In this document: positions 27,103-40,778 of the stretch, piece after piece
Layout of the letters: each line of letters begins with the position of its first letter
Position numbering within the stretch: the first letter of the stretch is position 1
Virus record (IMG/VR): IMGVR_UViG_3300020473_000016
Source of the DNA: a virus
Length of the DNA: 64,000 nucleotides
Strand: one strand, 5' to 3'
Notes under the pieces: model-generated
What the model was told of the DNA's origin: nothing
Databases searched by the model: none
The model's input: the letters and a program-made list of their open reading frames with translations, nothing else
Position numbers and translations under genes: made by a program

Positions 27103-27160
27103 AGTATAAACAGAAAATGCCCCAAGTGGGGGCATTAGTGGACACTAATCCGATTGGCAC
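27103..27160 (-). promoter_or_regulatory. Palindrome promoter P1
   Basis: tggacacta-atcc-gattggcac (27139-27160); 30-bp gap; TATACT. Confidence 0.75.
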
Positions 27161-27291
27161 AGACTAGGGTCGATTCTGCAAATTTGTTCGTTACGCTGTT
27201 CGAGGTTCTCCCACAATTGAGCGTCACGGATGGCAAGTGCTACATTCGCACCGATTGCGATAACCACGCCAGCAAGAATAATTCTGATCAT
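27145..27291 (-). CDS. Small membrane or secreted protein (48 aa)
   Basis: MIRIILAGVVIAIGANVALAIRD...CRIDPSLCQSD; hydrophobic N-terminus; ATGA coupling. Confidence 0.65.
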   Translation of the reverse strand: MIRIILAGVVIAIGANVALAIRDAQLWENLEQRNEQICRIDPSLCQSD

Positions 27292-27443
27292 GCGTGGTTC
27301 AATGTGAATTCACAACGAATGCCAGCACCTTGATAAAATGCGAGCATCTCCTGTGCTTTCGCAAAACTGCTAAACGTTATATGCCTTGGTTGACCTTGGT
27401 CGAATGGCATCCAATAGCGAATAGTGTTTTTTGATGATTGCAT
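27288..27443 (-). CDS. Hypothetical protein (51 aa)
   Basis: Start moved to MQSSKNTIRYW because promoter P2 lies inside the longer ORF-track version. Confidence 0.65.
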   Translation of the reverse strand: MQSSKNTIRYWMPFDQGQPRHITFSSFAKAQEMLAFYQGAGIRCEFTLNHA

Positions 27444-27466
27444 AGAATGATTTGCTGTATAGTGTA

Positions 27467-27524
27467 AGTATAGGACATAACAAGCACGTCGCAAGACAGT
27501 TAGTGCCAGTTTAAAAATTGCCAT
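27467..27524 (-). promoter_or_regulatory. Palindrome promoter P2
   Basis: gtgccagtt-taaa-aattgccat (27503-27524); 30-bp gap; TATACT. Confidence 0.75.
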
Positions 27525-27562
27525 ACCTTCTATCCTGGGAAGGTATGGCATAGTGTAGGATG

Positions 27563-27868
27563 TCAAGTCAAACTCATGTACGTAAGCACTTGCGAGATCA
27601 TCACGGCATCCTGTCTGAATTGTTTTTTGTATGCTGCTGCGATACAGTGAAAGTTGACCAGCATATCGTCAACCTCAGAGTCTGGGAGTTCAACGTAGAG
27701 AATCTTGCAGTCCTCACGCTTGCCCTTCCAAAATCCTTCACCGTCGATAAATGTTCCGTACTCAAGGAGTGGCATCACTTCGCGTCTGATAAAATCATCC
27801 ATCATTGCGTCGGTGACTTTGCCGTTGTCTGGGATATCGCGTCCCATGGTTAGTTCAAGTCGGATCAT
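27563..27868 (-). CDS. DUF3574-like protein
   Basis: ELTMGRDIPDNGKVTD...FIRREVMP...DGEGFWKG..RE..KIL...AYKKQFRQDAV matches my recollection of DUF3574. Confidence 0.65.
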   Translation of the reverse strand: MIRLELTMGRDIPDNGKVTDAMMDDFIRREVMPLLEYGTFIDGEGFWKGKREDCKILYVELPDSEVDDMLVNFHCIAAAYKKQFRQDAVMISQVLTYMSLT

Positions 27869-27890
27869 AGAAATTCGTTGGTACAATACA

Positions 27891-27948
27891 AGTATAACAA
27901 AAAACCCTCACCGTGTAAGGTAAGGGTGTCCAGTTATTCTATTGGCAC
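27891..27948 (-). promoter_or_regulatory. Palindrome promoter P3
   Basis: tgtccagtt-attc-tattggcac (27927-27948); 30-bp gap; TATACT. Confidence 0.75.
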
Positions 27949-28097
27949 ATCTCTTCAAATCTTTTGATTGCGAGTCGTGCTGCCTTGTCTGCGATCTCAT
28001 CCTCAGAGTAGACTCCCTTGTTTAACCTTGCTTCAAGTTCGGTTAAGCAGTCGTCAAAAATTCCTTCAAGGATTGCTTCGTTTTGTAGGGTGGACAT
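27939..28097 (-). CDS. Acidic hypothetical protein (52 aa)
   Basis: MSTLQNEAILEGIFDDCL...KRFEEMCQ; the stop lies inside the palindrome. Confidence 0.7.
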   Translation of the reverse strand: MSTLQNEAILEGIFDDCLTELEARLNKGVYSEDEIADKAARLAIKRFEEMCQ

Positions 28098-28121
28098 AGA
28101 CCTTCGATTGATTACATTTTA

Positions 28122-28179
28122 AATATAAACCATTTTTGAACAGAATGGTGAAACTGTGTGCCAGTTTGTCAACTGGTCT
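28122..28179 (-). promoter_or_regulatory. Palindrome promoter P4
   Basis: gtgccagtt-tgtc-aactggtct (28158-28179); 30-bp gap; TATATT. Confidence 0.75.
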
Positions 28180-28306
28180 CTATTTGGATGATTGGTTCCC
28201 ATACATCCAGTACAATGTCAGCACGTGCTGCTGCCTCACTTAAGAGGTCGGTAATCTGCTCACGCTCTCTAAACGTGAGCAAATCATAAATGTCGTAACG
28301 CATCAT
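28169..28306 (-). CDS. Hypothetical protein (45 aa)
   Basis: MMRYDIYDLLTFREREQITDLL...; ATGA coupling; stop inside the palindrome. Confidence 0.6.
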   Translation of the reverse strand: MMRYDIYDLLTFREREQITDLLSEAAARADIVLDVWEPIIQIETS

Positions 28307-28482
28307 GCAAATAAGGGACGCATGTAATCTTTGAACTGTTCACGCTTGTAATCAGCGAGAACTCTCAACTCATCTTCAGGTAATATATACCCTTCGAGTT
28401 TCATCTCATCATAACATGCTTGAGAGATGCCCTTGTCTGTGATGTCGTACTCATGCAGTTGCACGTGTTTAAAAAATGACAT
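28303..28482 (-). CDS. Hypothetical protein
   Basis: MSFFKHVQLHEYDITDKGI...; TAATG coupling at 28482. Confidence 0.65.
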   Translation of the reverse strand: MSFFKHVQLHEYDITDKGISQACYDEMKLEGYILPEDELRVLADYKREQFKDYMRPLFA

Positions 28483-28727
28483 TAACCCATACCCCAATAT
28501 TTGAGATCTGTGCCAGCGTGCATTTCGTTAAACATGGACTGGATTTCGTAGTAGTCTGCGTCATCCCATTTCACACCGTCACGTGTTTCAAAAAATCCAC
28601 AGTCGTTTTTCATTACGTTCTTGAATTCTGTGAATCCACAGCACTCAAGTGCGAGACGGTAAAGGCACTCTGTATTCTGAATCCAGAGAGCGACGTTCCA
28701 AGTCTCGTAATCTTTCCAACCGTTCAT
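28482..28727 (-). CDS. Conserved phage hypothetical protein (NGWxxYETWNVALW family)
   Basis: Recognisable N-terminal motif MNGWKDYETWNVALWIQN. Confidence 0.7.
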   Translation of the reverse strand: MNGWKDYETWNVALWIQNTECLYRLALECCGFTEFKNVMKNDCGFFETRDGVKWDDADYYEIQSMFNEMHAGTDLKYWGMG

Positions 28728-28755
28728 AAAATGCTTTGATTTGTTTGACTCTTTA

Positions 28756-28813
28756 AATATAAACGATTTTGAGTGAGAATAGGGAAAGTGTGTGCCACTA
28801 ATATAATTGGCAC
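28756..28813 (-). promoter_or_regulatory. Palindrome promoter P5
   Basis: gtgccacta-atat-aattggcac (28792-28813); 30-bp gap; TATATT. Confidence 0.75.
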
Positions 28814-28910
28814 GAGGTCAGCCAGAATTTTGTTTCATTATGTAACGATATTGTCTATATGGGTGCATCTGTGTTTATAATGGAAGGGTTCAAATGAATT
28901 CAATCATTTT

Positions 28911-29240
28911 ATGCCAGTCGCAACCGTTTCCAAGTCAACCGCAGCAAAACCAGCACGCAAGACAAGGACACGCAAAGCACCTGCTAAAAAAACAGCAGTA
29001 CGCAAAGTCACCGTTACAACCTTCAAAGGTGGCAAGGCAGTCGCAAAGATCACAACTCTCAAACGTCCTTCATCTCGCAACCTGATTTCAAGTGATCGCT
29101 ATCTCAAGGATTTTCAGACAAGATGGGCAATCCATTCATTTGAGATCCAAGAATTAGTTAAGGACTTTCGCAAGGGTTTCGATTTCATCACTCCCTATCA
29201 CGCTCAACTCGTAAATCAAGTTAAGCAGTGGACAGTTTAG
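28911..29240 (+). CDS. Basic protein with a Lys/Arg/Ala/Thr-rich histone-tail-like N-terminus
   Basis: KSTAAKPARKTRTRKAPAKKTAVRK; TATAAT at 28876-28881 upstream; terminator downstream. Confidence 0.7.
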   Translation: MPVATVSKSTAAKPARKTRTRKAPAKKTAVRKVTVTTFKGGKAVAKITTLKRPSSRNLISSDRYLKDFQTRWAIHSFEIQELVKDFRKGFDFITPYHAQLVNQVKQWTV

Positions 29241-29286
29241 AAAGTTGCACACAAGCACCCCACAGGGTGCTTTTTTCATGTATTAT
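29229..29286 (+). promoter_or_regulatory. Palindrome promoter P6 (plus strand)
   Basis: tggacagtt-taga-aagttgcac (29229-29250); 30-bp gap; TG-TATTAT. Confidence 0.7.
29253..29276 (+). terminator. Rho-independent terminator
   Basis: AAGCACCC-CACA-GGGTGC followed by T6. Confidence 0.8.
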
Positions 29287-29314
29287 TAAAGAGTAAAGCA
29301 ATTCACTTCATTTC

Positions 29315-29461
29315 ATGCCCTACAACCAAGACTTCGTTGAATCACGTGCCGAAGACATCTTTGACGGTTGGGTTCAAGAGTTTTTCAGAGACCTAACCGA
29401 ATTGGATGAACAGGCACTATACTCCCTCGCTCTAGACACTGCGATTGCCGAAGCACTTTAA
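29315..29461 (+). CDS. Acidic hypothetical protein (48 aa)
   Basis: MPYNQDFVESRAEDIFDGWVQEFFRDLTELDEQALYSLALDTAIAEAL; sits between P6 and a terminator. Confidence 0.65.
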   Translation: MPYNQDFVESRAEDIFDGWVQEFFRDLTELDEQALYSLALDTAIAEAL

Positions 29462-29492
29462 AAAATATCACCCCTCGAAAGAGGGGTATTTT
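29462..29492. terminator. Probable bidirectional terminator
   Basis: ACCCCTC-GAAA-GAGGGGT flanked by A and T runs, between convergent genes. Confidence 0.7.
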
Positions 29493-29514
29493 CATGCCCA
29501 AAAAAAGAACGGTC

Positions 29515-29697
29515 TTAGAGACCGTTCATGTAATCGTGAAGAGCATCTCTGTACTCTTCGTAATTTGAGTAGCGATCTTTGAACGCAGCAGGGACCTCTT
29601 GAGAGATCGCTGCTTCCATGCTTTCATGGATTTCACGAGACGTGTATCCCTTTTGAGTGAGTTGGGGATAGAACTCATTTAAAATTGAATCATTCAT
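29515..29697 (-). CDS. Hypothetical protein, probably leaderless
   Basis: MNDSILNEFYPQL...; ATG 6 nt after TATAAT. Confidence 0.7.
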   Translation of the reverse strand: MNDSILNEFYPQLTQKGYTSREIHESMEAAISQEVPAAFKDRYSNYEEYRDALHDYMNGL

Positions 29698-29703
29698 ATA
29701 CTC

Positions 29704-29762
29704 ATTATACACACACAACAGACCCAAATAGGAAAAATGTGTGCCAGTTTCTCAACTGTCTT
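29704..29762 (-). promoter_or_regulatory. Palindrome promoter P7
   Basis: gtgccagtt-tctc-aactgtctt (29741-29762); 31-bp gap; TATAAT. Confidence 0.75.
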
Positions 29763-30075
29763 CGGCAGCTGACTTGTGAACTGGAAATGATAATGTTTCA
29801 CCTGGTTTCATTGAGTAAGTTGTAACCCCTTTGTCATCGGGTGTCCATGCTTTGACATCTTTAACATTGTCACAAAGATCTTTCCATAACTCTTCATCAT
29901 ATGTTTCAATATGTTCTCTAAGGTCATGGTATCCCAAACCTTGATGATAATCGCAAAGCGTATCATAAACATATTGGTACATGGTCTTCCAATCCATACC
30001 ATCTGCAACGATTTCGGAATACTGTTCAGCGATGGCATCAAGTTGGGCAGCGTTCATAGAGTTTGAATTAGACAT
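29752..30075 (-). CDS. Hypothetical protein, probably leaderless
   Basis: MSNSNSMNAAQLDAIAEQY...; ATG 6 nt after TATAAT. Confidence 0.7.
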   Translation of the reverse strand: MSNSNSMNAAQLDAIAEQYSEIVADGMDWKTMYQYVYDTLCDYHQGLGYHDLREHIETYDEELWKDLCDNVKDVKAWTPDDKGVTTYSMKPGETLSFPVHKSAAEDS

Positions 30076-30081
30076 AGTAAT

Positions 30082-30138
30082 ATTATACCATATGGCGAGC
30101 ACAGGTCAGCTGACCTCAGACAGTTTGACAGGTGGCAC
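30082..30138 (-). promoter_or_regulatory. Palindrome promoter P8
   Basis: cagacagtt-tgac-aggtggcac (30117-30138); 29-bp gap; TGG-TATAAT. Confidence 0.7.
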
Positions 30139-30152
30139 ACCTTCGGTTGATA

Positions 30153-30311
30153 TCACCTGTAACTTGGTGTAATATAGTACTCTCCGTCATAGTAGTCTTG
30201 ATCAACCCAATTCTTTATACCTATGTCTTCACCATACGTATTAATTAACTCTTCTCTTTGTTCATTTAATTCATTAATGAAAAACTGTTTGTTCTTGTTA
30301 ACATTTTCCAT
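30153..30311 (-). CDS. Hypothetical protein (52 aa)
   Basis: MENVNKNKQFFINELNEQREELINTYGEDIG...; TATAAT at 30338-30343. Confidence 0.55.
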   Translation of the reverse strand: MENVNKNKQFFINELNEQREELINTYGEDIGIKNWVDQDYYDGEYYITPSYR

Positions 30312-30387
30312 AATAGATTAGAGCGAGGTTAGTATTAATTATAACACAGCATGTGTTAAACACGCTCTGTTAAATCTTAAGTTTTTA

Positions 30388-30442
30388 TAAAAACAAAAAA
30401 ACGCACTTTCTGAGAATATCAAAAAACTCAAAAAGTGCGTTT
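30388..30442 (-). terminator. Long stem-loop, probable terminator
   Basis: 15 of 16 bp stem (30399-30414 with 30427-30442), 12-nt loop, T-rich tail on the minus strand. Confidence 0.55.
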
Positions 30443-30449
30443 CTTAAGT

Positions 30450-30797
30450 TTATGCAACTTCGAGAGTTTCTGAGTTATGTAATATCATACCATCAAAGAA
30501 TGGTACAATTTTACCTCTGAAACTTACGAACCATTCAAATTGCTTTTGAAACACACCTGCACCGTATTTGACTTCATCAAGTAATGCATTTAGTCTGGAC
30601 TTAGTAGTCACAGTCTCCCATCCGCATGATGATATCTTTAATGCACGTGTGTTATGGTCATACGTAGCAATGTTATGACCATGTAAATAAACTGAACTGC
30701 AATTTGTATTCTCATTGTAATGAACATCGGTGTTAGATCCAGACCAGTTGCCTTTGTTGCTAACTGCGAAGTTCATTTGCTTTTCAAGTTTACGCAT
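30450..30797 (-). CDS. Conserved cyanophage-type hypothetical protein
   Basis: Start moved to MRKLEKQMNFAV; VYLHGHNIA...GWETVTTKSRLNALL motif. Confidence 0.7.
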   Translation of the reverse strand: MRKLEKQMNFAVSNKGNWSGSNTDVHYNENTNCSSVYLHGHNIATYDHNTRALKISSCGWETVTTKSRLNALLDEVKYGAGVFQKQFEWFVSFRGKIVPFFDGMILHNSETLEVA

Positions 30798-30826
30798 GAA
30801 TGTAAGAAAGAATAGGTTAATAAAAG

Positions 30827-30847
30827 TTTTCAACAGGGTGTGGAAAA
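30827..30847. promoter_or_regulatory. Inverted pair of DnaA-box-like 9-mers
   Basis: TTTTCAACA-ggg-TGTGGAAAA in an intergenic gap. Confidence 0.45.
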
Positions 30848-30853
30848 ACATCA

Positions 30854-31042
30854 CTAAACCACAGGGTCTAGTGATGCTTCTATTGATGCGTCCAATTTGG
30901 CATTTAATGTCCAAAGGTTTTGGCACTCATCGTCATCCTGTATGAAAGGGTTGTCAAGAGCACGATCCAAAGAGGCAACGTATGCTTGTGCTTCTTCGAT
31001 TGTGAGTTCTAGAGTGATCATGTTGGGAACTTTGTTTGACAT
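30854..31042 (-). CDS. Hypothetical protein, probably leaderless
   Basis: ATG 6 nt after TATAAT. Confidence 0.65.
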   Translation of the reverse strand: MSNKVPNMITLELTIEEAQAYVASLDRALDNPFIQDDDECQNLWTLNAKLDASIEASLDPVV

Positions 31043-31048
31043 GTACTT

Positions 31049-31105
31049 ATTATAGACGAGATTGGCAACAGTGGGGAGAAAAGTGGACAGTTTGTGAACT
31101 GGTCT
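31049..31105 (-). promoter_or_regulatory. Palindrome promoter P9
   Basis: tggacagtt-tgtg-aactggtct (31084-31105); 29-bp gap; TATAAT. Confidence 0.75.
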
Positions 31106-31140
31106 ACCTCTCTCTTATCCACTGCTGCTCAACCATATCT

Positions 31141-31198
31141 ATTATATACGATCACCTTACCTTTTCTACCTGCCTTGTGCCACTTTAATAACTGTCCT
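31141..31198 (-). promoter_or_regulatory. Palindrome promoter P10
   Basis: gtgccactt-taat-aactgtcct (31177-31198); 30-bp gap; TATAAT. Confidence 0.75.
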
Positions 31199-31340
31199 CC
31201 TCCCAACTCTTATATTCCTTAAAACGTGTTACCTTTTTTTTACCTGATCTCTTGACGTTCTTAATATTATATCCATAATCCTCTATATCTTCATCTATTT
31301 GATTGTACTTACTATGATCTAACTTAGTAGGTTTAGTCAT
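31185..31340 (-). CDS. Hypothetical protein (51 aa)
   Basis: MTKPTKLDHSKYNQIDEDIEDYGY...; stop inside the palindrome. Confidence 0.6.
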   Translation of the reverse strand: MTKPTKLDHSKYNQIDEDIEDYGYNIKNVKRSGKKKVTRFKEYKSWEEDSY

Positions 31341-31362
31341 TGGTATGAAATGAACAGTTGTA

Positions 31363-31602
31363 TTATTTATTTTCAGTGAGAGCACCAGATTTGATGCTTT
31401 TATGTAATAATTTCCCTACACTTTCCTTGTTTGATATACAATTAAGGAATGATTGTGTAAATTCTAATACATTTTCACAATTAAATTCGTATTCTTTGTT
31501 TATATTACTGTTATATGTGATTATAACAGTATTTTCAGTGAATTTAACTGTTTTTACGGCGGATGAGTTTAAATCATCGAATATGCCAGTGATTTTGACC
31601 AT
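31363..31602 (-). CDS. KTSC-like domain protein
   Basis: SSAVKTVKF...VIITYNSN..KEYEF...ESVGKLLHKSIK resembles the KTSC pattern. Confidence 0.5.
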   Translation of the reverse strand: MVKITGIFDDLNSSAVKTVKFTENTVIITYNSNINKEYEFNCENVLEFTQSFLNCISNKESVGKLLHKSIKSGALTENK

Positions 31603-31722
31603 TTTAAAGAAAATAGAAAAGATTTAAAACTTAAAAAACTCAAAAAGTCAAAAATACAAACTTTTTAAAATGTTGAAAAACTTAAAAAGTGAGATTTCCG
31701 AGTTTTTTGGATTTATGACTTT

Positions 31723-31780
31723 ATTATACTCCTCCTCAGAGGGATTTGGTGGGTTTCTGTGCCACTTTGAGAACTGTCAC
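31723..31780 (-). promoter_or_regulatory. Palindrome promoter P11
   Basis: gtgccactt-tgag-aactgtcac (31759-31780); 30-bp gap; TATAAT. Confidence 0.75.
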
Positions 31781-31873
31781 ACTACTCCTTGACTTTCGGT
31801 AGGTGGCACGCTAAGACAACAAGAAGAGAGCACGTTACCTATATTTTTTTAACCATTTCTAAATGATTCAGAG

Positions 31874-31896
31874 TTATCCACAACCACTGTGGAAAA
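31874..31896. promoter_or_regulatory. Inverted pair of DnaA boxes
   Basis: TTATCCACA-accac-TGTGGAAAA: one perfect R-box and one TTTTCCACA box. Confidence 0.55.
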
Positions 31897-31960
31897 CCCT
31901 AGTCATACCAATGTGCGGATGGTTACTATAGGATAGTATCCTGAGAACATTTCTCAATAG

Positions 31961-32254
31961 TTATCCTGCCTTCTCTCTCAACCACTTTGGTACATATATT
32001 AAACACAATGCACCTACCCAAAACACTCCAAGTGACCACAACTCAACAACCCTATGACCTACACTTATCCACAACCCTATTCCTATTAATACTATCCATA
32101 ACCAATCTAATGTACTATGGATTTGTTGCCATCTACTACCAAAGTCTTTAATCAGTTCTTGTCTTATTTGTGCGAATAGAGGTGATACATGTCTCATCAT
32201 AACAAATCCTTCATTTAGAACCATTATCACGTATCCTATTATGAATATTATCAT
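31961..32254 (-). CDS. Membrane protein
   Basis: Three hydrophobic, Trp-rich segments. Confidence 0.65.
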   Translation of the reverse strand: MIIFIIGYVIMVLNEGFVMMRHVSPLFAQIRQELIKDFGSRWQQIHSTLDWLWIVLIGIGLWISVGHRVVELWSLGVFWVGALCLIYVPKWLREKAG

Positions 32255-32340
32255 TGTGTAGTTTATCTCTCTTTCTTAAGGGTGTTTTGTAACCATATTT
32301 CAGGTCATGTTTTAATCGTTGCAAGTATTTAAGATGATCT

Positions 32341-32532
32341 TTAATCTCTTTGCTTGATATCATATTCAATAACGATCTTCTTACTTATTCGTCCAGTTGA
32401 ATTGCTTGTTTCTAGTCTAGTCATGTTACCATTTAATAATGCTGTTAATGTTAATAGTTCGGATATGATCTCACCTTCATCAGTGTTCATATCACAATGC
32501 TTTAGGTCAGTTAAATTTGAGTAATTATGCAT
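32341..32532 (-). CDS. Hypothetical protein
   Basis: ORF track; true start may be MNTDEGEII. Confidence 0.6.
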   Translation of the reverse strand: MHNYSNLTDLKHCDMNTDEGEIISELLTLTALLNGNMTRLETSNSTGRISKKIVIEYDIKQRD

Positions 32533-32565
32533 AGTTAATATATGTGTTAAAATGGGGTTAATTCA

Positions 32566-32573
32566 TATAAATA
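32566..32573 (+). promoter_or_regulatory. Perfect late promoter TATAAATA (plus strand)
   Basis: Exact match upstream of the plus-strand micro-ORF. Confidence 0.7.
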
Positions 32574-32643
32574 ATTATGTATTCAATCGAGGGCAATGTA
32601 ACCAAATCTACTACATTATGAGTTCAATTCAAAGAGAGGTCTT

Positions 32644-32811
32644 ATGCATAACATCGTATCGCAAAATCAACTAAGAGGATGGAATCATTCATTACATGCA
32701 TCAAATACAAGAGATGACAATACCACGAGACTTAATGATTACTATGATTGTATGATAGCGAGCGAGCAAGACCATACGAGTAAACAAATCTGTAAGGACA
32801 TACTTCAATGA
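32644..32811 (+). CDS. Small Cys-containing protein (55 aa)
   Basis: MHNIVSQNQLRGWNHSLHASNTRDDNTTRLNDYYDCMIASEQDHTSKQICKDILQ; GAGG SD; own promoter and terminator. Confidence 0.7.
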   Translation: MHNIVSQNQLRGWNHSLHASNTRDDNTTRLNDYYDCMIASEQDHTSKQICKDILQ

Positions 32812-32832
32812 ATCCAAATTAAATACTGTCAT

Positions 32833-32858
32833 AAGCACCTCGTAAGGGGTGCTTTTTT
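32833..32858 (+). terminator. Rho-independent terminator
   Basis: AAGCACCTC-GTAA-GGGGTGCTT followed by a T run. Confidence 0.8.
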
Positions 32859-32864
32859 ATTGTA

Positions 32865-32954
32865 TCATACATGTGGATCATACTTTCTGATTATGTACAA
32901 TGCAAGAGCAACACCGATTGATGTTGAACCAAGTATAATAATAACTAAAGGCAT
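32865..32954 (-). CDS. Single-TM micro-protein (29 aa)
   Basis: MPLVIIILGSTSIGVALALYIIRKYDPHV; start overlaps the upstream gene end. Confidence 0.5.
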   Translation of the reverse strand: MPLVIIILGSTSIGVALALYIIRKYDPHV

Positions 32955-33259
32955 TTGTCACTCCTAATTTTTAATGAATAATGTTGGGGTTTAAGGTTAT
33001 ATTTTATTATGTGCTCACATGCATCATAATAATATCTGAACCATGCTACTGGCAATGGATCTTTCTTTCTTTTATCATCGAAACGTATCTTAAATGTGCT
33101 CCCATGTGGAAACAGTTCTAATTTACGTGATGCTGGACACTTAGGTGCATCAGGATGAGTACTAATCACATCAGGATTATAGGGATCATTTTCCCATTTC
33201 TTTCTGCGTGTAGTTAGTTTCTTTAGATTAGCATCCAAACTCTTTTGAGTGCGTGCCAT
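32945..33259 (-). CDS. Basic hypothetical protein
   Basis: ORF track; TAATG coupling. Confidence 0.65.
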   Translation of the reverse strand: MARTQKSLDANLKKLTTRRKKWENDPYNPDVISTHPDAPKCPASRKLELFPHGSTFKIRFDDKRKKDPLPVAWFRYYYDACEHIIKYNLKPQHYSLKIRSDKCL

Positions 33260-33381
33260 TAAGTTTTCTGCTCCATGCGTAGAATGTTGATCTCTTCAAG
33301 TAGTCTCTCTGCTTCCTTGTCTTGACCTTTGTTCTTTGCGTTAATGTAGTCTAGTATTAAGTTTTTAAGATCTTCCCTCAT
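33259..33381 (-). CDS. Hypothetical protein (40 aa)
   Basis: MREDLKNLILDYINAK...; ATG 1 nt after the upstream TAA. Confidence 0.6.
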   Translation of the reverse strand: MREDLKNLILDYINAKNKGQDKEAERLLEEINILRMEQKT

Positions 33382-33382
33382 T

Positions 33383-33622
33383 TTATCGTTCAAGGGAATG
33401 GAATAATTCTTTGAGTTCATCCTCATTATAGAAGAATGTCTGCTCCTTATGTAGCATAGTTTCTTCCATCCATTCGTGGTATTCTTGACATAAACAGAGT
33501 GCATCGTCATGTCTTTCCTCCGCAAACAGCGTCAATAGACGACTTACGACACCCTCACATATCTCATCCCTGCGGTGAGATATGCGGAAACTTTCGTTGT
33601 CATCTAGGTCAAATGAGTTCAT
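33383..33622 (-). CDS. Hypothetical protein
   Basis: Coupled to both neighbours. Confidence 0.65.
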   Translation of the reverse strand: MNSFDLDDNESFRISHRRDEICEGVVSRLLTLFAEERHDDALCLCQEYHEWMEETMLHKEQTFFYNEDELKELFHSLER

Positions 33623-33870
33623 TTTGCTCTCAACTGGAATACATTATTTAGATGATCGTAGGATACGAACTCTACATCTTTAGGTAACGCTTTCACTGCG
33701 GATGCTGCAAAATCGTTGGGATACCTAGAGAATAGTCTCCAGTACTTCTTAACACCTTCATCATCCAATCCTGCTTTTGGTACTGGACGGACTACTGCAT
33801 CACCATCTGCGTAGTCAAAGCGGAAATCTATGAACTCCGAGATGTATTCGTGGAATAGATTTTTAGACAT
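33619..33870 (-). CDS. Hypothetical protein
   Basis: ORF track; promoter directly upstream. Confidence 0.65.
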   Translation of the reverse strand: MSKNLFHEYISEFIDFRFDYADGDAVVRPVPKAGLDDEGVKKYWRLFSRYPNDFAASAVKALPKDVEFVSYDHLNNVFQLRAK

Positions 33871-33893
33871 GAATAAAAGAGGTTACATTTAAT

Positions 33894-33922
33894 AGTTTAG
33901 CGTATTTAGATATGATTGTCAA
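33894..33922 (-). promoter_or_regulatory. Canonical sigma70-type promoter with a nested late box
   Basis: TTGACA-N17-TAAACT; CTAAATA (33903-33909) lies in the spacer. Confidence 0.7.
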
Positions 33923-34368
33923 CCATGTGGATACATGTATAAGTATCCACCTGCCCAGTCTGCACGACCAAGACACTCAGATCTTGATCTCTCATCTAAT
34001 AAATTATATCTTACATGCTGTGCTGGTTTTGCCCAACCTGCTGGTTTATATACGTCACCAGTCTTCTTATCTACAAATGCATTAACACTTCCATCACGAT
34101 ACTCATTTCTATCTCTGAATGTATCATACTCTTGTGATACAATCTTATAATACTTTCTACCATTATAGACCTTAAACTTCATAAGGTTAGCAGTGCCATT
34201 ATTGGTTGCTTCAATTTCATTTCTTGTGTACTCTGAAGCACTCTCAAGGTGCATACGCTCCATTGATCTTAGATGAGACTGTTTATAGTCTTCCTCTAAT
34301 GCTCTGCATAGTTCTTGTGTATATTGCTCTACCGCTTCTTGTGTCCTTGTTTTAACTGCGGATGGCAT
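33919..34368 (-). CDS. Conserved phage hypothetical protein
   Basis: GRKYYKIV...SVNAFVDKKTGDVYKPAGWAKPAQHVRYNL motif; AAGGAG SD. Confidence 0.75.
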   Translation of the reverse strand: MPSAVKTRTQEAVEQYTQELCRALEEDYKQSHLRSMERMHLESASEYTRNEIEATNNGTANLMKFKVYNGRKYYKIVSQEYDTFRDRNEYRDGSVNAFVDKKTGDVYKPAGWAKPAQHVRYNLLDERSRSECLGRADWAGGYLYMYPHG

Positions 34369-34384
34369 GTTTGAACTCCTTATG

Positions 34385-34792
34385 GTATAGTGAAAAAAGT
34401 GTGGACTTATAACAATAAGAGCGAATCATTGATGTACGCCACACTATGTAAAATGTTGAGAGAGTGGGGCATCAACATAGGTTTCACCTATATGCCCAAA
34501 TTTACCCTACGGGAATCGCTTACACCTGAACCCCCACCACTTGCACATCTTAGTAGGTCTAACAAGACGTAATTTCTCTGCTGAACAGAGACAACCATAG
34601 ATCTTTGCCCACACTATGCTCAACCATCTGTCTGTGCAGTAATAGGTGTCTACCAACGTCATGTGACTGCTTCTGCCTGAAACCATAATCTCATAATTAA
34701 AAACCTAGTAAACTAGGGGGATTGAGTAACAGGTCGGTCAGTCTAGTTGGTAGGTTTGGGGCGTAGGAACCACATATCCCTCAACATTTATA
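34385..34792 (-). ncRNA. Candidate structured non-coding RNA or long regulatory leader
   Basis: ~410 nt without a convincing ORF, starts at TATAAATG, carries several hairpins (see findings). Confidence 0.45.
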
Positions 34793-35207
34793 TAATACCA
34801 TTTTTTTGATCCTCTGCATCATCCTTTGTGACACTTTGTAATCTGTCCTTACGAATAGGCACTTCTAACTCCCATGCACTATTCTTAATGGTAATCATCG
34901 TGAAATCACGTTTAAATCGCTTCTGTGCTTCCTCAAATGACTTTGCTGGTTCATTACCTGCAATCTCACCATAATGCGGATCCCAGATCTCAGGATGTTC
35001 GTGACAGTCAAAGAATTCTAATATAGAACTATCTACCATGTGATATAATGTATCCCATGTTAATGTAGTTCTTAATCTTTCAGCGATATAATCTATTTGA
35101 TTAGGTGTTATAGATGAGTCTTTCTCATCTTTAAATAGAAATTCACATCTTGTTTCAACCAATTCATTTAGATCAATGGTGATCTGTACATTATTATATA
35201 CTGCCAT
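34788..35207 (-). CDS. Hypothetical protein, paralog of 35210-35473
   Basis: MAVYNNVQITIDLNELVETR. Confidence 0.7.
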   Translation of the reverse strand: MAVYNNVQITIDLNELVETRCEFLFKDEKDSSITPNQIDYIAERLRTTLTWDTLYHMVDSSILEFFDCHEHPEIWDPHYGEIAGNEPAKSFEEAQKRFKRDFTMITIKNSAWELEVPIRKDRLQSVTKDDAEDQKNGII

Positions 35208-35209
35208 GT

Positions 35210-35473
35210 TTAATCCTCAAGGTCAGGTAAATGTGGTTCAACCCAGTGTTCAGTATTATCAATACCTGCTGCTTTTACATAGTTCATAATATGTTCATCA
35301 ACTTGATGGAATATTGGATGTAAATCTAATTCCATATTAATATCATGTGCTATCTCAGCAACTTGTGCTTCAGTGAAGCAATGATCCTTATGTAATAGGT
35401 TACAAGTGGGTATTCTCTTTTCAATCAATTCATTTAGATTGATTCTAATTTCATAGTCTCTATATACTGGCAT
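35210..35473 (-). CDS. Hypothetical protein, paralog of 34788-35207
   Basis: Start moved to MPVYRDYEIRINLNELIEKR (GAGG SD). Confidence 0.7.
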   Translation of the reverse strand: MPVYRDYEIRINLNELIEKRIPTCNLLHKDHCFTEAQVAEIAHDINMELDLHPIFHQVDEHIMNYVKAAGIDNTEHWVEPHLPDLED

Positions 35474-35636
35474 GATCCCTCTTATTGTGGTAAATGATCT
35501 TCTTACCATCAAACTCACTCTGAGTTGCATTTGGATTTGCATACCGAGTATATGTACCATCCTCAATGTCCTCACCTTTGTGAGTACCAACATTGATGGT
35601 CGTAATAGCACGATAAATCCAATCTAAAATGTTCAT
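35460..35636 (-). CDS. Hypothetical protein
   Basis: GGAGG SD before MNILDWIY. Confidence 0.55.
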   Translation of the reverse strand: MNILDWIYRAITTINVGTHKGEDIEDGTYTRYANPNATQSEFDGKKIIYHNKRDHASI

Positions 35637-35664
35637 GCTAACCTCCATGCACTATAAGTATCTA

Positions 35665-35847
35665 TCATACCAACCACCAGTCATACTTGTCAATACTTGT
35701 GTTACATGACTGACATGTTAGTGCTGACCATGCGAAATGGTACACATTAAAACATTCATTACATTTGGGGCATTGTATTCCTTTACCATGATTCCCAGAT
35801 CTAGTGAATCTATTAACTTTAATTTGATGACTATGCATGTTAAGCAC
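35665..35847 (-). CDS. Zinc-ribbon protein
   Basis: CPKC...CQSC; start uncertain. Confidence 0.6.
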   Translation of the reverse strand: MLNMHSHQIKVNRFTRSGNHGKGIQCPKCNECFNVYHFAWSALTCQSCNTSIDKYDWWLV

Positions 35848-36067
35848 CTTGTAATGATATGGAATTGTGATAGTTTTGCTTAGTATTTAAGCATGTCTTG
35901 TGAATGTTAAAGAGTAAGTCAAAGTTTACTCCTTCCCAGTCACACCACTCTGACACATAATCAGCGTTATCAAAATCGCCTGTGCCATCAGTATATTGTG
36001 GGCATGATCTAAATTCAAGATCATCATCAACCCAGAAGAGTCTGCCAAAGAATTCAGATGAATACAT
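35840..36067 (-). CDS. Hypothetical protein
   Basis: GAGG SD before MYSSEFFGRLFWVDD. Confidence 0.6.
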   Translation of the reverse strand: MYSSEFFGRLFWVDDDLEFRSCPQYTDGTGDFDNADYVSEWCDWEGVNFDLLFNIHKTCLNTKQNYHNSISLQGA

Positions 36068-36069
36068 GA

Positions 36070-36291
36070 TTAATTTACCTCCTCTTCTTGTATAATATCC
36101 CATACTTGAATATACTTTTCTAACCAATTCTTAGCATATTCTGTTAAACTATCTCTTAAATCACCATATAAAATGTCATCTGCTGACATAAATGGTAGTT
36201 CTTGTTGTTCACAGAAGTCACCTAATACATCAGATAAAAAATCTAATTTATCATGTGATAATCGTGTGTTGTAGTGTTTAACTTTAGACAT
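36070..36291 (-). CDS. Acidic hypothetical protein
   Basis: ORF track; coupled. Confidence 0.6.
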   Translation of the reverse strand: MSKVKHYNTRLSHDKLDFLSDVLGDFCEQQELPFMSADDILYGDLRDSLTEYAKNWLEKYIQVWDIIQEEEVN

Positions 36292-36524
36292 TACTCAACC
36301 TCCTCAAAATAGATACCATGAATAGTATTGAACTCATCAATACTTAAATACTCATCATTATGATAATTTGCTATGTTCTCTCCAGTAAATATAAACTCTT
36401 CACAAAAATATTGTACACTTACACCCATATTATCAGCACAACCGATTAATTCATCAGTTTGTTCGTGATTACATCCTAAGTATTGGATGCAATATGCAAT
36501 GTCATTTGTGAAGTCCTTAAACAT
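36291..36524 (-). CDS. Acidic hypothetical protein
   Basis: AAGGAGG SD before MFKDFTNDIAY. Confidence 0.65.
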   Translation of the reverse strand: MFKDFTNDIAYCIQYLGCNHEQTDELIGCADNMGVSVQYFCEEFIFTGENIANYHNDEYLSIDEFNTIHGIYFEEVE

Positions 36525-36621
36525 TGGTTTCCTCCTTAAGTTCTTTAATCTTTTGGACTCTCTCACTATGAGTTAGTTTAGTATTCCAAAGAATGACCTT
36601 GAGTTTATCATAATAAGTCAT
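36517..36621 (-). CDS. Micro-protein (34 aa)
   Basis: MTYYDKLKVILWNTKLTHSERVQKIKELKEETNV; ATGA coupling. Confidence 0.5.
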   Translation of the reverse strand: MTYYDKLKVILWNTKLTHSERVQKIKELKEETNV

Positions 36622-36755
36622 TTGTTTTCCTCCTCATAAGATGGTTGAGCAATGGTAACAACTATGTTGTCAGTATTATCAATGTATTGTAGTATTTCAG
36701 TGGGACATTGATTTAACCACTCGTGAAACTGTTCGTATTGAGATGGACTAATCAT
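36618..36755 (-). CDS. Micro-protein (45 aa)
   Basis: MISPSQYEQFHEWLNQCPTEILQY...; TGATG coupling. Confidence 0.55.
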   Translation of the reverse strand: MISPSQYEQFHEWLNQCPTEILQYIDNTDNIVVTIAQPSYEEENK

Positions 36756-36958
36756 CAATATTCCTCCTGTGCCTGAAATGTTACATAATTATCTTGCTGT
36801 ACATGATAACCTACAACCTCAGCATTTCTATGATCTTCTTCATCATAGTAATGTAAATTACTGTTCAAATATGCCTGTATTTCTTCACATAAATGAACTG
36901 GATTTGGTTCGTCACCATCTTCAGCAACGATACGGAATGAATAAGTAACAAGTTTCAT
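36755..36958 (-). CDS. Acidic hypothetical protein
   Basis: ORF track; TAATG coupling. Confidence 0.6.
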   Translation of the reverse strand: MKLVTYSFRIVAEDGDEPNPVHLCEEIQAYLNSNLHYYDEEDHRNAEVVGYHVQQDNYVTFQAQEEY

Positions 36959-37134
36959 TAGTTGTTCTCCAAGATGTGTAGGAATTCGTTGTATTCTTGA
37001 TCTGAATATGGTCTTCTATCTTCCTTTACAAAATCTTGCCAATCTGTTCCTTCTAACTTGTATGATAGTGTGCCATCATTATTATGATAGTATTCAATGA
37101 CTGCACCATCTACATTTGATATAAAACTATTCAT
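36958..37134 (-). CDS. Hypothetical protein (58 aa)
   Basis: MNSFISNVDGAVIEYYHNNDGTLSYKL...; coupled on both sides. Confidence 0.6.
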   Translation of the reverse strand: MNSFISNVDGAVIEYYHNNDGTLSYKLEGTDWQDFVKEDRRPYSDQEYNEFLHILENN

Positions 37135-37307
37135 TCTACTTCCTCCACTTCATAGACCTCATAGTCATCATCATCAAGTAATTCCCAATCGGTACTGTCA
37201 TTTAATGCGAGGAATTCTGCTTCCCCTTCATCTGCTGCTTCAACATAGGCAATATAGTTTGTTACTCTTGATGCAACCACTCTGTATTCTTTGAGTTTGG
37301 TAGTCAT
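37131..37307 (-). CDS. Highly acidic protein (58 aa)
   Basis: MTTKLKEYRVVASRVTNYIAYVEAADEGEAEFLA...DDDDYEVYEVEEVE; AGGAG SD; first gene after P12. Confidence 0.7.
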   Translation of the reverse strand: MTTKLKEYRVVASRVTNYIAYVEAADEGEAEFLALNDSTDWELLDDDDYEVYEVEEVE

Positions 37308-37338
37308 TGGAATTGCTCCTTTTGTTGAGTACTTTGTT

Positions 37339-37395
37339 ATTATAGGTCAAATTGGAATGAGATGGGAAATTAGTGGACACTAATTAAAGTGTCCA
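37339..37395 (-). promoter_or_regulatory. Palindrome promoter P12
   Basis: tggacacta-atta-aagtgtcca (37374-37395); 29-bp gap; TATAAT. Confidence 0.75.
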
Positions 37396-37407
37396 CTATT
37401 ATTGACA

Positions 37408-37620
37408 TTAACCGTTGCTTCCTGAGAAGATGTAGTTATTTGAACCATCGGTATCAGTACCAATATACACATCAGTGTACTTAAAGAATCCCTCTAATAA
37501 TGATAACAGTTCGTTACCATTGTTACATTCGTTCTCTAATGCATCTAATACAAGTAAACGTGCATCTGATTCAACATCAGAGCGAGAGTGAAAAGTTGTT
37601 GATCCGAGTTGGAATGTCAT
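37408..37620 (-). CDS. Hypothetical protein
   Basis: ORF track; downstream of P13. Confidence 0.6.
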   Translation of the reverse strand: MTFQLGSTTFHSRSDVESDARLLVLDALENECNNGNELLSLLEGFFKYTDVYIGTDTDGSNNYIFSGSNG

Positions 37621-37641
37621 AGTAATTTGACTGAACTATAC

Positions 37642-38583
37642 TTAGTATAACGGAAGTTTGTTCGGAATGGTAGAAATACGGTCAGTTTGTAAACTGGCAT
37701 AGTCCTTGTTGAGTTCACATCCAATATATGATCTACTATACTTCTTAGCAACCATTGCTGTAGTTCCTGAACCCATAAATGGGTCTAATACTACGTCACC
37801 GACCTCTGATCCTGCTAGGATACAAGGTTCTATTAGTTCAGGTGGATAGACTGCAAAGTGAGCACCTTTATAAGGTTTACATGCTACTTTCCATACTGAT
37901 CTCTTATTCCTTTTATCATAGACCATCTTACGAGGTCTTGTAAGACCACTGAATTGATTGTTAGTGTCCTTAGTATTATCCATGTTGATAGGTTTGTTGC
38001 CACCCCAACGCTCACCTACTGCCTGTTCTTTAATTGCTTCGTGATCATAATAATAGTTTCTGTTCTTACTCAATAGAAAGATATACTCATGTGATTTAGT
38101 ACATCTATCCTTAACTGATTCAGGCATTGGATTTGGTTTATGCCATATAATATCTTGTCTAAGATACCAACCGTCTGCTCTCAGTGCAAATGCCAACATC
38201 CAAGGTATACCAATTAGATCCTTTTCTTTTAATCCTTCTAGTTTGTTACCTCGTCTTGCACATTTGTTAGGTAAATCTTGGTTAGTATTGCTAACAGTTT
38301 GTTTAACTAATCCCTGACCTTTACCAGGTCTATAGTTATAATAACTGTCACCAATGTTTAACCACAATGTACCATCATCAGTAAGTACATTTCTTACTTC
38401 TCTAAACACATCTACAAGGTTTTGAATATACTCTTCAGGTGTATCTTCAAGTCCTATTTGTTTACTTTCATCGCCATAATTGCGAAGTCCGTAATAAGGT
38501 GGGGATGTAATACATGTTCTTGCTTTACATTTAAACTGCTTAAGTGTGTCTTTACAATCACCATATAATATCAAATCTTTCAT
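37642..38583 (-). CDS. DNA methyltransferase, beta class (N4-C/N6-A)
   Basis: TSPPYY (motif IV) precedes VLDPFMGSGTT (motif I); RQDIIWHKPNPMPES. Confidence 0.92.
   Translation of the reverse strand: MKDLILYGDCKDTLKQFKCKARTCITSPPYYGLRNYGDESKQIGLEDTPEEYIQNLVDVFREVRNVLTDDGTLWLNIGDSYYNYRPGKGQGLVKQTVSNTNQDLPNKCARRGNKLEGLKEKDLIGIPWMLAFALRADGWYLRQDIIWHKPNPMPESVKDRCTKSHEYIFLLSKNRNYYYDHEAIKEQAVGERWGGNKPINMDNTKDTNNQFSGLTRPRKMVYDKRNKRSVWKVACKPYKGAHFAVYPPELIEPCILAGSEVGDVVLDPFMGSGTTAMVAKKYSRSYIGCELNKDYASLQTDRISTIPNKLPLY
37644..37700 (-). promoter_or_regulatory. Palindrome promoter P13 (inside the MTase 3' end)
   Basis: cggtcagtt-tgta-aactggcat (37679-37700); 29-bp gap; TATACT. Confidence 0.7.
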
Positions 38584-39380
38584 GTTAAAAAGTTATTTAG
38601 TGGTTGAAATTTCTTGAGTCTATTGATACTTTTCTGGACATATTCTTCATGCAATTCTATACCTAAAAAATGACGATTGTAATCTTTACATGATATTGCA
38701 GTTGTTCCACTTCCCATGAATGGATCTAGAACTAAGTCATCAACAAAACTATAGTATTGAATGAGTTTGTCACTCAACTCTTTAGGGTATGGTGCAGGAT
38801 GATCAGAGTTTGTCTCTGGGTGTATATTCCACACGTTACTACGCTCGTATGCGTCGGTGACTTTTGACTTTTCAACTATTTCATTTTTTTGAGATTTTAG
38901 GATTTTATCAATTAAGAAATTTCCTGGTTTTTGGAAAATTAATATAACCTCAGAAACTATATTTGGTTTGTATGCTACTGGTTTACGGTGCTGATAGAAT
39001 CCACCATTGCGATTGATGGCAGCACCTTCAGGTTTAACCCATACTATGTCATCAATATACTTCCACCCCATCTGTTCCATGATGGAGAAGAAGTGGAATG
39101 GTATTGCGAGTCTCTTGCTCTCATGTGCTCGTGACTCTCTTGCTTGAATGACTGGTGATAGATTAACAGCACACATGCGTCCATCAGCAGTCACTCGATA
39201 TACTTCAGTGAATACATTGTGTAAGAACTCAAGGTACTCATCATAAGTTGGCCAAGTTGAGTATGCTCTTGCATTATAATATGGTGGCGAAGTACATGTT
39301 AAATGTACTATACCATCATCAACTTCCTTTAATACCTCTTGTGAATCACCAATTAATAATGTGTCTTCAAATATGCTCAT
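38580..39380 (-). CDS. Second DNA methyltransferase, beta class
   Basis: TSPPYY; HPAPYP; VLDPFMGSGTT. Confidence 0.9.
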   Translation of the reverse strand: MSIFEDTLLIGDSQEVLKEVDDGIVHLTCTSPPYYNARAYSTWPTYDEYLEFLHNVFTEVYRVTADGRMCAVNLSPVIQARESRAHESKRLAIPFHFFSIMEQMGWKYIDDIVWVKPEGAAINRNGGFYQHRKPVAYKPNIVSEVILIFQKPGNFLIDKILKSQKNEIVEKSKVTDAYERSNVWNIHPETNSDHPAPYPKELSDKLIQYYSFVDDLVLDPFMGSGTTAISCKDYNRHFLGIELHEEYVQKSINRLKKFQPLNNFLT

Positions 39381-40573: not shown

Positions 40574-40595
40574 AATAATGTTAGTACTGTATTAA

Positions 40596-40778
40596 TTATA
40601 CAGGTTTTTCGACTGGTGTCTCTGTCCCTTGTGACAGTTTATCTAGTGACACTATATCTGGCACTTTCATACCAGTGTTCATTATAATATTTACAACAAA
40701 CGCTTCGAGATATATTAATGATATGTAAATATAATCCTCTCCACTTAGTTCACGAACTCGATCTATCCATGTTTTCAT
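40596..40778 (-). CDS. Hypothetical protein
   Basis: ORF track. Confidence 0.5.
   Translation of the reverse strand: MKTWIDRVRELSGEDYIYISLIYLEAFVVNIIMNTGMKVPDIVSLDKLSQGTETPVEKPV

Follow-up and report, generated by a model that had tools for sequence, protein, structure and literature searches.

Predicted early promoters of a T4-like cyanophage built on a two-fold upstream element, with host PlmA as candidate activator

Introduction

How do T4-like cyanophages switch on their first genes? The genes alt, modA/B, motA and asiA are missing from cyanomyoviruses (PMC2984593), in agreement with what an earlier note on the DNA treated here had said of MotA and AsiA, and the timing of early transcription in T4-like cyanophages without Alt, ModA/B, MotA and AsiA has been an open question since the first genomes (PMC2984593). 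The question is raised anew by the IMG/VR virus record IMGVR_UViG_3300020473_000016, a stretch of 64,000 nucleotides (nt) that we refer to as the window, in which small open reading frames (ORFs) are repeatedly preceded by a 22-bp imperfect palindrome at a fixed distance from a -10 box. We think it somewhat more probable than the contrary that these are host-dependent early promoters, with the host regulator PlmA as the best candidate for their activator.

The source phage is a T4-like cyanophage of the Kyanoviridae type. The window has a G+C content of 36.8%, contains giant structural ORFs, and encodes proteins that are closest to those of the Synechococcus and Prochlorococcus myoviruses S-RSM4, MED4-213, P-SSM3 and P-TIM40. 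Near-identical DNA was sought in cultured phages and none was found, the relatives there being distant and recognizable at the protein level; a close relative is another IMG/VR contig (L001), with about 89% identity, in which the orthologous palindromes are all retained.

A two-fold element at a fixed distance from the -10 box

The promoters share one design, GTGNCA(G/C)TT-N4-AA(C/G)TGNCAC, an imperfect palindrome that is followed after 29–31 bp (mode 30) by a TATAAT-like box; the core of the palindrome reads G-N-C-A-(G/C)-T-T, four free bases, and A-A-(C/G)-T-G-N-C, with G/A-T/G on the outer left and A/C-C on the outer right. Fifteen such promoters are present in the window. The earlier note had listed thirteen, and all of these lie where it had placed them, each at 29–31 bp from a -10 hexamer (TATAAT, TATACT, TATATT or TATTAT), twelve of them on the minus strand and the one at 29229 alone on the plus strand. 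Its count has to be raised to 15, as a position weight matrix brings out two further sites, at 34828 and 40631, and in both of them the -10 box is exactly 30 bp away, so that the spacing rule has succeeded independently on sites that had not been used before. Its remark that no copies were seen in the structural blocks has to be amended: orphans that match the palindrome well stand in giant structural ORFs at 15465–15486, 8657, 63768 and 1153, where a correctly spaced -10 box is lacking.

The strict consensus with at most three mismatches gives five matches in the window against 0.03 expected, and when five other cyanophages alone serve to train a matrix, its 19 matches in the window include all 15 sites, compared with 0.63 matches in shuffles. 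Among 226 site directions in six genomes, offsets of 29, 30 and 31 bp hold a -10-like hexamer in 11, 34 and 10 cases, respectively, compared with about 0.5 for each other offset. The aligned spacers contain no conserved -35 hexamer, and a two-fold protein-binding site would seem to take its place, centred about 53 bp upstream of the predicted, not mapped, transcription start; if the start lies 7 nt after the -10 box, the site would begin at about -64 and extend to about -43.

Whether the palindrome acts as a protein site or as a folded structure was addressed by an arm covariation test on 67 oriented sites, with one arm shuffled among sites as the control. Of 603 cells, 386 hold complementary bases, where the shuffles give 399 ± 7.6, and at the pair formed by positions 7 and 16 identical bases on the arms (G..G 21, C..C 12) outnumber complementary ones (19). 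The absence of arm covariation, together with halves that each follow one consensus, points to a duplex site for a dimeric DNA-binding protein and not to a hairpin, and the hairpin or cruciform reading is rejected on this ground. Positions 7 and 16 of the 22-mer, which vary between G and C, tend in the phages to be alike when read on one strand (G..G or C..C), and the site is to that extent slightly asymmetric.

Occurrence in cyanophages and temporal class

The scan of related phages that the earlier note had proposed finds the element in five cultured cyanophages, Syn9, P-TIM40, S-RSM4, S-PM2 and P-HM2, which are enriched in the palindrome core (9–14 matches each against 0–4 for a reversed control) and keep the 30-bp rule, mostly within blocks of small ORFs. 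The composite sites of Syn9 (44775, 48559, 51001, 52997 and 127493) lie among the small ORFs gp60–gp93, and those of P-TIM40 fall at 45030–55025, 135384 and 157278. When IMG/VR was scanned for the core followed by 30 free bases and TATAMT, at least 120 stretches were found, with 151 matches in those fetched, and the same letters with an N6 gap, a composition-matched control, gave 0 matches. Among cyanomyoviruses such an element is nothing unusual and extends across the family.

A novel element is reportedly in control of the early genes of Syn9 and P-TIM40, is said to be abundant and conserved in T4-like cyanophages and metagenomes, and is not known to have had a binding factor named for it. 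The palindrome and -10 box described here are present in the small-ORF regions of these same two phages and widely in IMG/VR, and the citing papers examined do not give the motif sequence. The window element is probably the early-gene element of Doron et al. 2016 (ISME J 10:1437), the two logos being presumably identical.

Temporal information comes from P-HM2, all genes of which were clustered by expression in Thompson et al. 2016 (PMC5082946, S2 Table). Its sites lie upstream of the Early (A) genes 057, 060, 064, 066, 068 and 135 (with cobS, gene 136, next) and of the Mid (B) genes 044, 053 and 148, and no gene in clusters C, D and E, which hold 173 of the 242 genes (71%), is preceded by a composite site. 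Outside the main early block the only early genes are 135–136, for which a separate site is present. Since the sites of P-HM2 are confined to the earliest clusters, the motif marks the earliest transcription units, and the early class that had been claimed for the promoters of the window finds support in homology with these expression clusters. In P-HM2 (NC_015284) the palindrome at 39293–39314 has -10-like boxes 31 bp off on both sides, which lead to the divergent early genes PHM2_064 and PHM2_066; one palindrome serving two divergent promoters fits a symmetric site.

The half-site shared with host yfr2 promoters

A candidate for the binding factor is offered by the hosts. In Prochlorococcus as well as in marine Synechococcus, yfr2 promoters carry a palindromic element, CGRE1 (Lambrecht et al. 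2018, PMC6191309), which has been described as a palindrome of 21–22 nt flanked by (C/T)AAC ... GTT(G/A) that starts 55–57 nt before the transcription start. The yfr2 promoter pulled down the GntR regulator PMM1637, the shift in electrophoretic mobility assays was specific and was lost in an R50A mutant, and reporter activity in Escherichia coli was higher with wild-type PMM1637 (PMC6191309). PMM1637 is the PlmA homologue of strain MED4, and homologues are present in all cyanobacteria and exclusive to them (PMC6191309); no other regulator of the GntR type is common to the whole phylum.

The CGRE1 loci that we fetched from the host family read AACTGNCAC, 1–2 bases, GTGNCAGTT, which is the 9-bp half-site of the phage with the halves swapped; the half-site GTGNCAGTT / AACTGNCAC is common to the phage logo and to seven host examples that were compared with it. 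CGRE1 thus resembles the phage site in its half-site, in being palindromic, and in standing upstream of a -10 box without a -35 hexamer; it acts as an activator site, with the half-site at a fixed register before a small RNA (sRNA). It differs in that its halves are everted and 1–2 bp apart, whereas those of the phage are inverted around N4, and in its reported position of -57 to -35, against a predicted position of about -64 to -43 for the phage site; it has been described for host yfr2 genes only, and phages are absent from PMC6191309. Everted pairs with a gap of 1–2 occur 0–1 times per genome in six phage genomes, where only the inverted N4 form is enriched. The distance from the end of GTGNCAGTT to the GTGAGGAG box is about 55 nt in almost every host-family copy; the partner half stands to the left where the genome is low in GC (CGRE1), and GC-rich genomes have it to the right, in a degenerate but phage-like form. 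From the published position of CGRE1, transcription in Prochlorococcus would begin about 18 nt ahead of GTGAGGAG; for the phage and the GC-rich host copies, a start some 43 nt beyond the palindrome fits. It is the identity of the half-site with the defined PlmA/PMM1637 site that allows a concrete host factor to be named. Among the papers searched, none was found that links CGRE1, PMM1637 or PlmA with cyanophages.

The inverted arrangement itself is found in cellular genomes. A scan for the perfect palindrome in one genome per prokaryote species gave matches that are rich in cyanobacteria, at loci where the palindrome is followed after 32 bp by TATTCT or TATCCT and the transcript begins GTGAGGAG or GCAAGGAG. 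All eight loci of the GTGAGGAG type that were tested exceed the gathering cut-off for the Rfam family RF01701 Cyano-1, which we take to be the Yfr2 sRNA family; five loci of the GCAAGGAG type, from Nostocales, had no Rfam match. When Cyano-1 loci were picked by the RNA model alone and the 95 nt upstream of them were scanned, the best matrix match fell at -59 to -63 with a score of at least 14 in 14 of the 21 genomes outside the small-genome (picocyanobacteria-like) set. At more than nine loci in Nostocales and further cyanobacteria that are not marine picocyanobacteria, genes for Cyano-1/Yfr2-type sRNAs have GTGNCAGTT-N4-AACTGNCAC at 32 bp ahead of their -10 box. These promoters are like those of the phage in their inverted half-sites, fixed spacer and -10 box, and unlike them in having 32 bp to TATTCT/TATCCT where the phage has 29–31 bp to TATAAT, and one to few palindromes per genome where the phage has 10–20. 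The inverted form may be the general PlmA site. Rfam and tRNA scans of the window gave no match, and no Cyano-1-like RNA lies behind the phage promoters.

Cyano-1 was also sought, and not found, in the small genomes of the phylum sample and in the family of one genome (G009); these are probably non-photosynthetic Cyanobacteriota, and their tallies are therefore uninformative on hosts. The phage-type palindrome was considered as a general site of the host family and dropped for want of enrichment in 61 host-family genomes. Two picocyanobacterial assemblies carry perfect or near-perfect phage-type palindromes clustered on single contigs (C1 of G534, at 114042 and 128295, and C28 of G515), which are probably cyanophage DNA inside the assemblies. 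Outside the phylum, GTGACA(C/G)TT-N4-AA(G/C)TGTCAC also recurs in intergenic DNA of Acidobacteriota (many loci), and the same palindrome forms back-to-back tandem pairs in alphaproteobacterial, Sphingomonad-like metagenome-assembled genomes (four loci).

Proposed mechanism and its significance

We propose that a dimeric factor at the two-fold site, about 53 bp upstream of the predicted start, would recruit host RNA polymerase to a sigma-70-type -10 box that lacks a -35 hexamer, that this factor would be a resident host protein, for which PlmA (PMM1637 in Prochlorococcus MED4) is the best candidate, and that PlmA would bind the inverted half-sites of the phage and activate its early genes. A GntR domain was sought in five cyanomyovirus genomes and none was found, while control genomes gave matches; because expression begins with the genes concerned and no GntR protein is encoded by the phages, the binding factor is most likely resident in the host. 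Of the two origins that the earlier note had left side by side, a phage-specific switch is for the same reasons the less likely, and the capture of a host regulator is favoured by the half-site and register shared with the Yfr2/Cyano-1 promoters and by the PMM1637 data, with binding to the phage form itself presumed. The fuller statement, that T4-like cyanophages connect their early genes to the PlmA-Yfr2 stress circuit of the host and that the palindrome is a PlmA site made of CGRE1 half-sites, inverted as most cyanobacteria have them at yfr2, is one to which we give a little under even chances.

The element itself seems to be known, and the valuable part is the naming of PlmA as its likely activator, which can be tested. 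If this is true, one promoter design would work in every host, since PlmA and the half-site are universal in cyanobacteria, and cyanophages of broad host range could run one early programme in different hosts. The phage promoters would then join a very small PlmA regulon, and the light and nitrogen status that controls PlmA could gate the onset of infection in those marine phototrophs that are most abundant.

Alternative explanations

Several points weigh against PlmA as the activator of early phage promoters. The arrangement in the phages is not CGRE1, and the binding of PlmA to the phage form would follow from the shared half-site; in the 61 host-family genomes the phage-type palindrome shows no enrichment, with 46 matches where the reversed control has 194, and CGRE1 is reported to be absent from the rest of the MED4 genome (PMC6778093). 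Activation by PMM1637 was measured in E. coli, with no fold-change given in the running text (PMC6191309). Three of the P-HM2 sites precede cluster B and not cluster A genes, and the promoters of this window would be assigned to the early class by homology with P-HM2. A rival activator has to be reckoned with as well, namely one owned by the phage, which would arrive with the DNA as part of the virion or be translated from the first transcripts to appear and would replace the -35 contact as a functional counterpart of T4 Alt or MotA. With alt, modA/B, motA and asiA missing, cyanomyoviruses need some other control (PMC2984593), and such an activator would sit well with the lack of enrichment in host-family genomes and with an arrangement unlike the CGRE1 form bound by PMM1637. 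We nevertheless regard it as unlikely, as the same arrangement and register stand before a host sRNA family in many cyanobacteria beyond the host range of these phages, so that a cellular factor for it must exist; moreover, the five phage genomes have no GntR domain, and no DNA-binding protein candidate was found among ten small genes downstream of the window promoters.

A host factor other than PlmA, for example one of the CRP/FNR type, could bind the palindrome, the likeness to CGRE1 being then coincidental or the site shared. The 5-N4-5 core CAGTT-N4-AACTG has an FNR-like geometry, three Crp-type regulators are present in MED4 (PMC6778093), and the inverted N4 arrangement differs from the form that was tried with PMM1637; what makes this reading rather improbable is that the match extends beyond the inner pentamer to the whole 9-bp half-site, with its outer GTG and free position 4, and that it concerns the same gene family, yfr2, whose regulator was found by an unbiased pull-down. 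More improbable still is an operator that shuts the early promoters off, through a later repressor or through host PlmA silencing them until a signal arrives: many GntR-family proteins do repress, and early transcripts of P-HM2 fall after 1.5 h (PMC5082946, Table 1), but the site lies upstream of the -35 position without overlap with the -10 box or start, the want of a -35 hexamer in these promoters agrees with a need for an activator, and PMM1637 raised the activity of the yfr2 promoter in the reporter assay. Finally, the repeat might have no protein role at all and be only a recombination cassette, PeSL-like, or a DNA or RNA hairpin. Mosaic breakpoints at palindrome/-10 elements in the close relative and in metatranscriptome contigs, and terminator hairpins inside the spacer, are what such a reading would lead one to expect; it is hardly credible against arms that do not covary and that avoid complementarity at positions 7/16, a spacing from the -10 box that varies by no more than ±1 bp between distant phages and hosts, and conservation by sequence at the same positions of both halves.

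Comparison with other phage promoters

The closest functional parallel in T4 is the MotA/AsiA middle promoter, which likewise combines a -10 box with an upstream activator box in place of the -35 hexamer and defines a temporal class of phage genes. The MotA box, however, is asymmetric, (a/t)(a/t)TGCTT(t/c)A at -30, and requires the phage proteins MotA and AsiA, whereas the site in the window is two-fold, lies at about -53 and precedes the earliest genes.

The PeSL cassettes of T4-like phages (Arbiol 2010; Comeau 2014, PMC4122927) resemble the window in their dense repeats of early promoter and terminator hairpin around small variable ORFs in hyperplastic regions, in mosaic junctions at the repeats, and in a terminator or stem-loop coupled to the promoter, here a hairpin and T-run within the spacer at 27139, 27927 and 29229. 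They differ in having a sigma-70 promoter with a near-consensus (TTGACA-like) -35 hexamer, N17 and a -10 box, and no activator palindrome. Cyanophages are not covered in the PeSL papers (PMC4122927), and no high PeSL density was seen in the part of the S-PM2 ORFanage that was studied (Puxty et al. 2015, PMC4503421). A GC-rich hairpin and T-run often occur within the 30-bp spacer, in the window at 27109–27138, 27897–27926 and 29251–29280 and at many IMG/VR loci, so that the terminator of the upstream gene appears nested inside the next promoter in a PeSL-like composite.

Homology with L001 breaks at or beside palindromes and -10 boxes, at 28111–28305 and 29505–30107 of the window, and in RNA contigs from related phages the -10 box of one unit is fused to a different unit's palindrome (31054 to 28154, 28756 to 31083 and 31101 to 28316); these junctions fit a shuffling of cassettes by recombination at the promoter elements. 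Parts of the 26.8–32 kb region are present in marine RNA libraries from three studies, with exact copies in one (P1); such metatranscriptome contigs give neither transcription starts nor proof of transcription.

Promoter units and downstream genes

The fifteen units of the window are as follows, each from -10 box to palindrome, with starts as predicted and ORF lengths in amino acids (aa); DUF denotes a domain of unknown function.

27103–27160, minus: unit 1, palindrome 27139–27160, -10 TATACT 27103–27108; predicted start about 27096, the ATG of a 55-aa ORF (27096–26929, phrog_27623); terminator-like hairpin in spacer
27467–27524, minus: unit 2, palindrome 27503–27524, -10 TATACT 27467–27472; predicted start about 27460; ORF 27443–27288 (51 aa)
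27891–27948, minus: unit 3, palindrome 27927–27948, -10 TATACT 27891–27896; ORF 27868–27563 (101 aa, DUF3574); terminator-like hairpin in spacer
28122–28179, minus: unit 4, palindrome 28158–28179, -10 TATATT 28122–28127; ORF 28097–27939 (52 aa)
28756–28813, minus: unit 5, palindrome 28792–28813, -10 TATATT 28756–28761; ORF 28727–28482 (81 aa, DUF7249)
29229–29286, plus (the only plus-strand unit): unit 6, palindrome 29229–29250, -10 TATTAT 29281–29286; ORF 29315–29461 (48 aa); terminator-like hairpin in spacer
29704–29762, minus: unit 7, palindrome 29741–29762, -10 TATAAT 29704–29709, spacer 31; predicted start at ATG 29697 of a 60-aa ORF
30082–30138, minus: unit 8, palindrome 30117–30138, -10 TATAAT 30082–30087, spacer 29; predicted start at ATG 30075 of a 107-aa ORF (DUF7326)
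31049–31105, minus: unit 9, palindrome 31084–31105, -10 TATAAT 31049–31054, spacer 29; predicted start at ATG 31042 of a 62-aa ORF
31141–31198, minus: unit 10, palindrome 31177–31198, -10 TATAAT 31141–31146; tandem with unit 9
31723–31780, minus: unit 11, palindrome 31759–31780 (the best copy), -10 TATAAT 31723–31728; 114-nt leader; ORF 31602–31363 (79 aa)
34792–34849, minus: unit 12 (new), palindrome 34828–34849, -10 TATTAT 34792–34797, spacer 30
37339–37395, minus: unit 13, palindrome 37374–37395, -10 TATAAT 37339–37344, spacer 29; ORF 37307–37131 (58 aa)
37644–37700, minus: unit 14, palindrome 37679–37700, -10 TATACT 37644–37649; ORF 37620–37408 (70 aa)
40595–40652, minus: unit 15 (new), palindrome 40631–40652, -10 TATAAT 40595–40600; ORF 40573–40325 (82 aa, phrog_495)

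The copy at 31177 had been assigned to a 10-codon ORF; a reading as one of two tandem promoters, 93 bp upstream of the one at 31084, is preferable. Ten of the first downstream ORFs were scanned; PHROG families are matched by seven and, in addition, Pfam DUFs above the cut-off by three, all of them families without an assigned function. At four minus-strand promoters an ATG falls exactly at the predicted +1, the seventh nucleotide after the -10 box (27096, 29697, 30075 and 31042), a coincidence that suggests leaderless mRNAs at these four.

One copy had been placed inside the coding region of a methyltransferase, and the palindrome at 37679 does lie in the last codons of the methyltransferase ORF 37642–38583. 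The same neighbourhood recurs in cultured phages, where the 3' end of a DNA methyltransferase gene carries or abuts the palindrome promoter of the next small early genes at 32985 in P-HM2 (dam) and at 52467 in P-TIM40.

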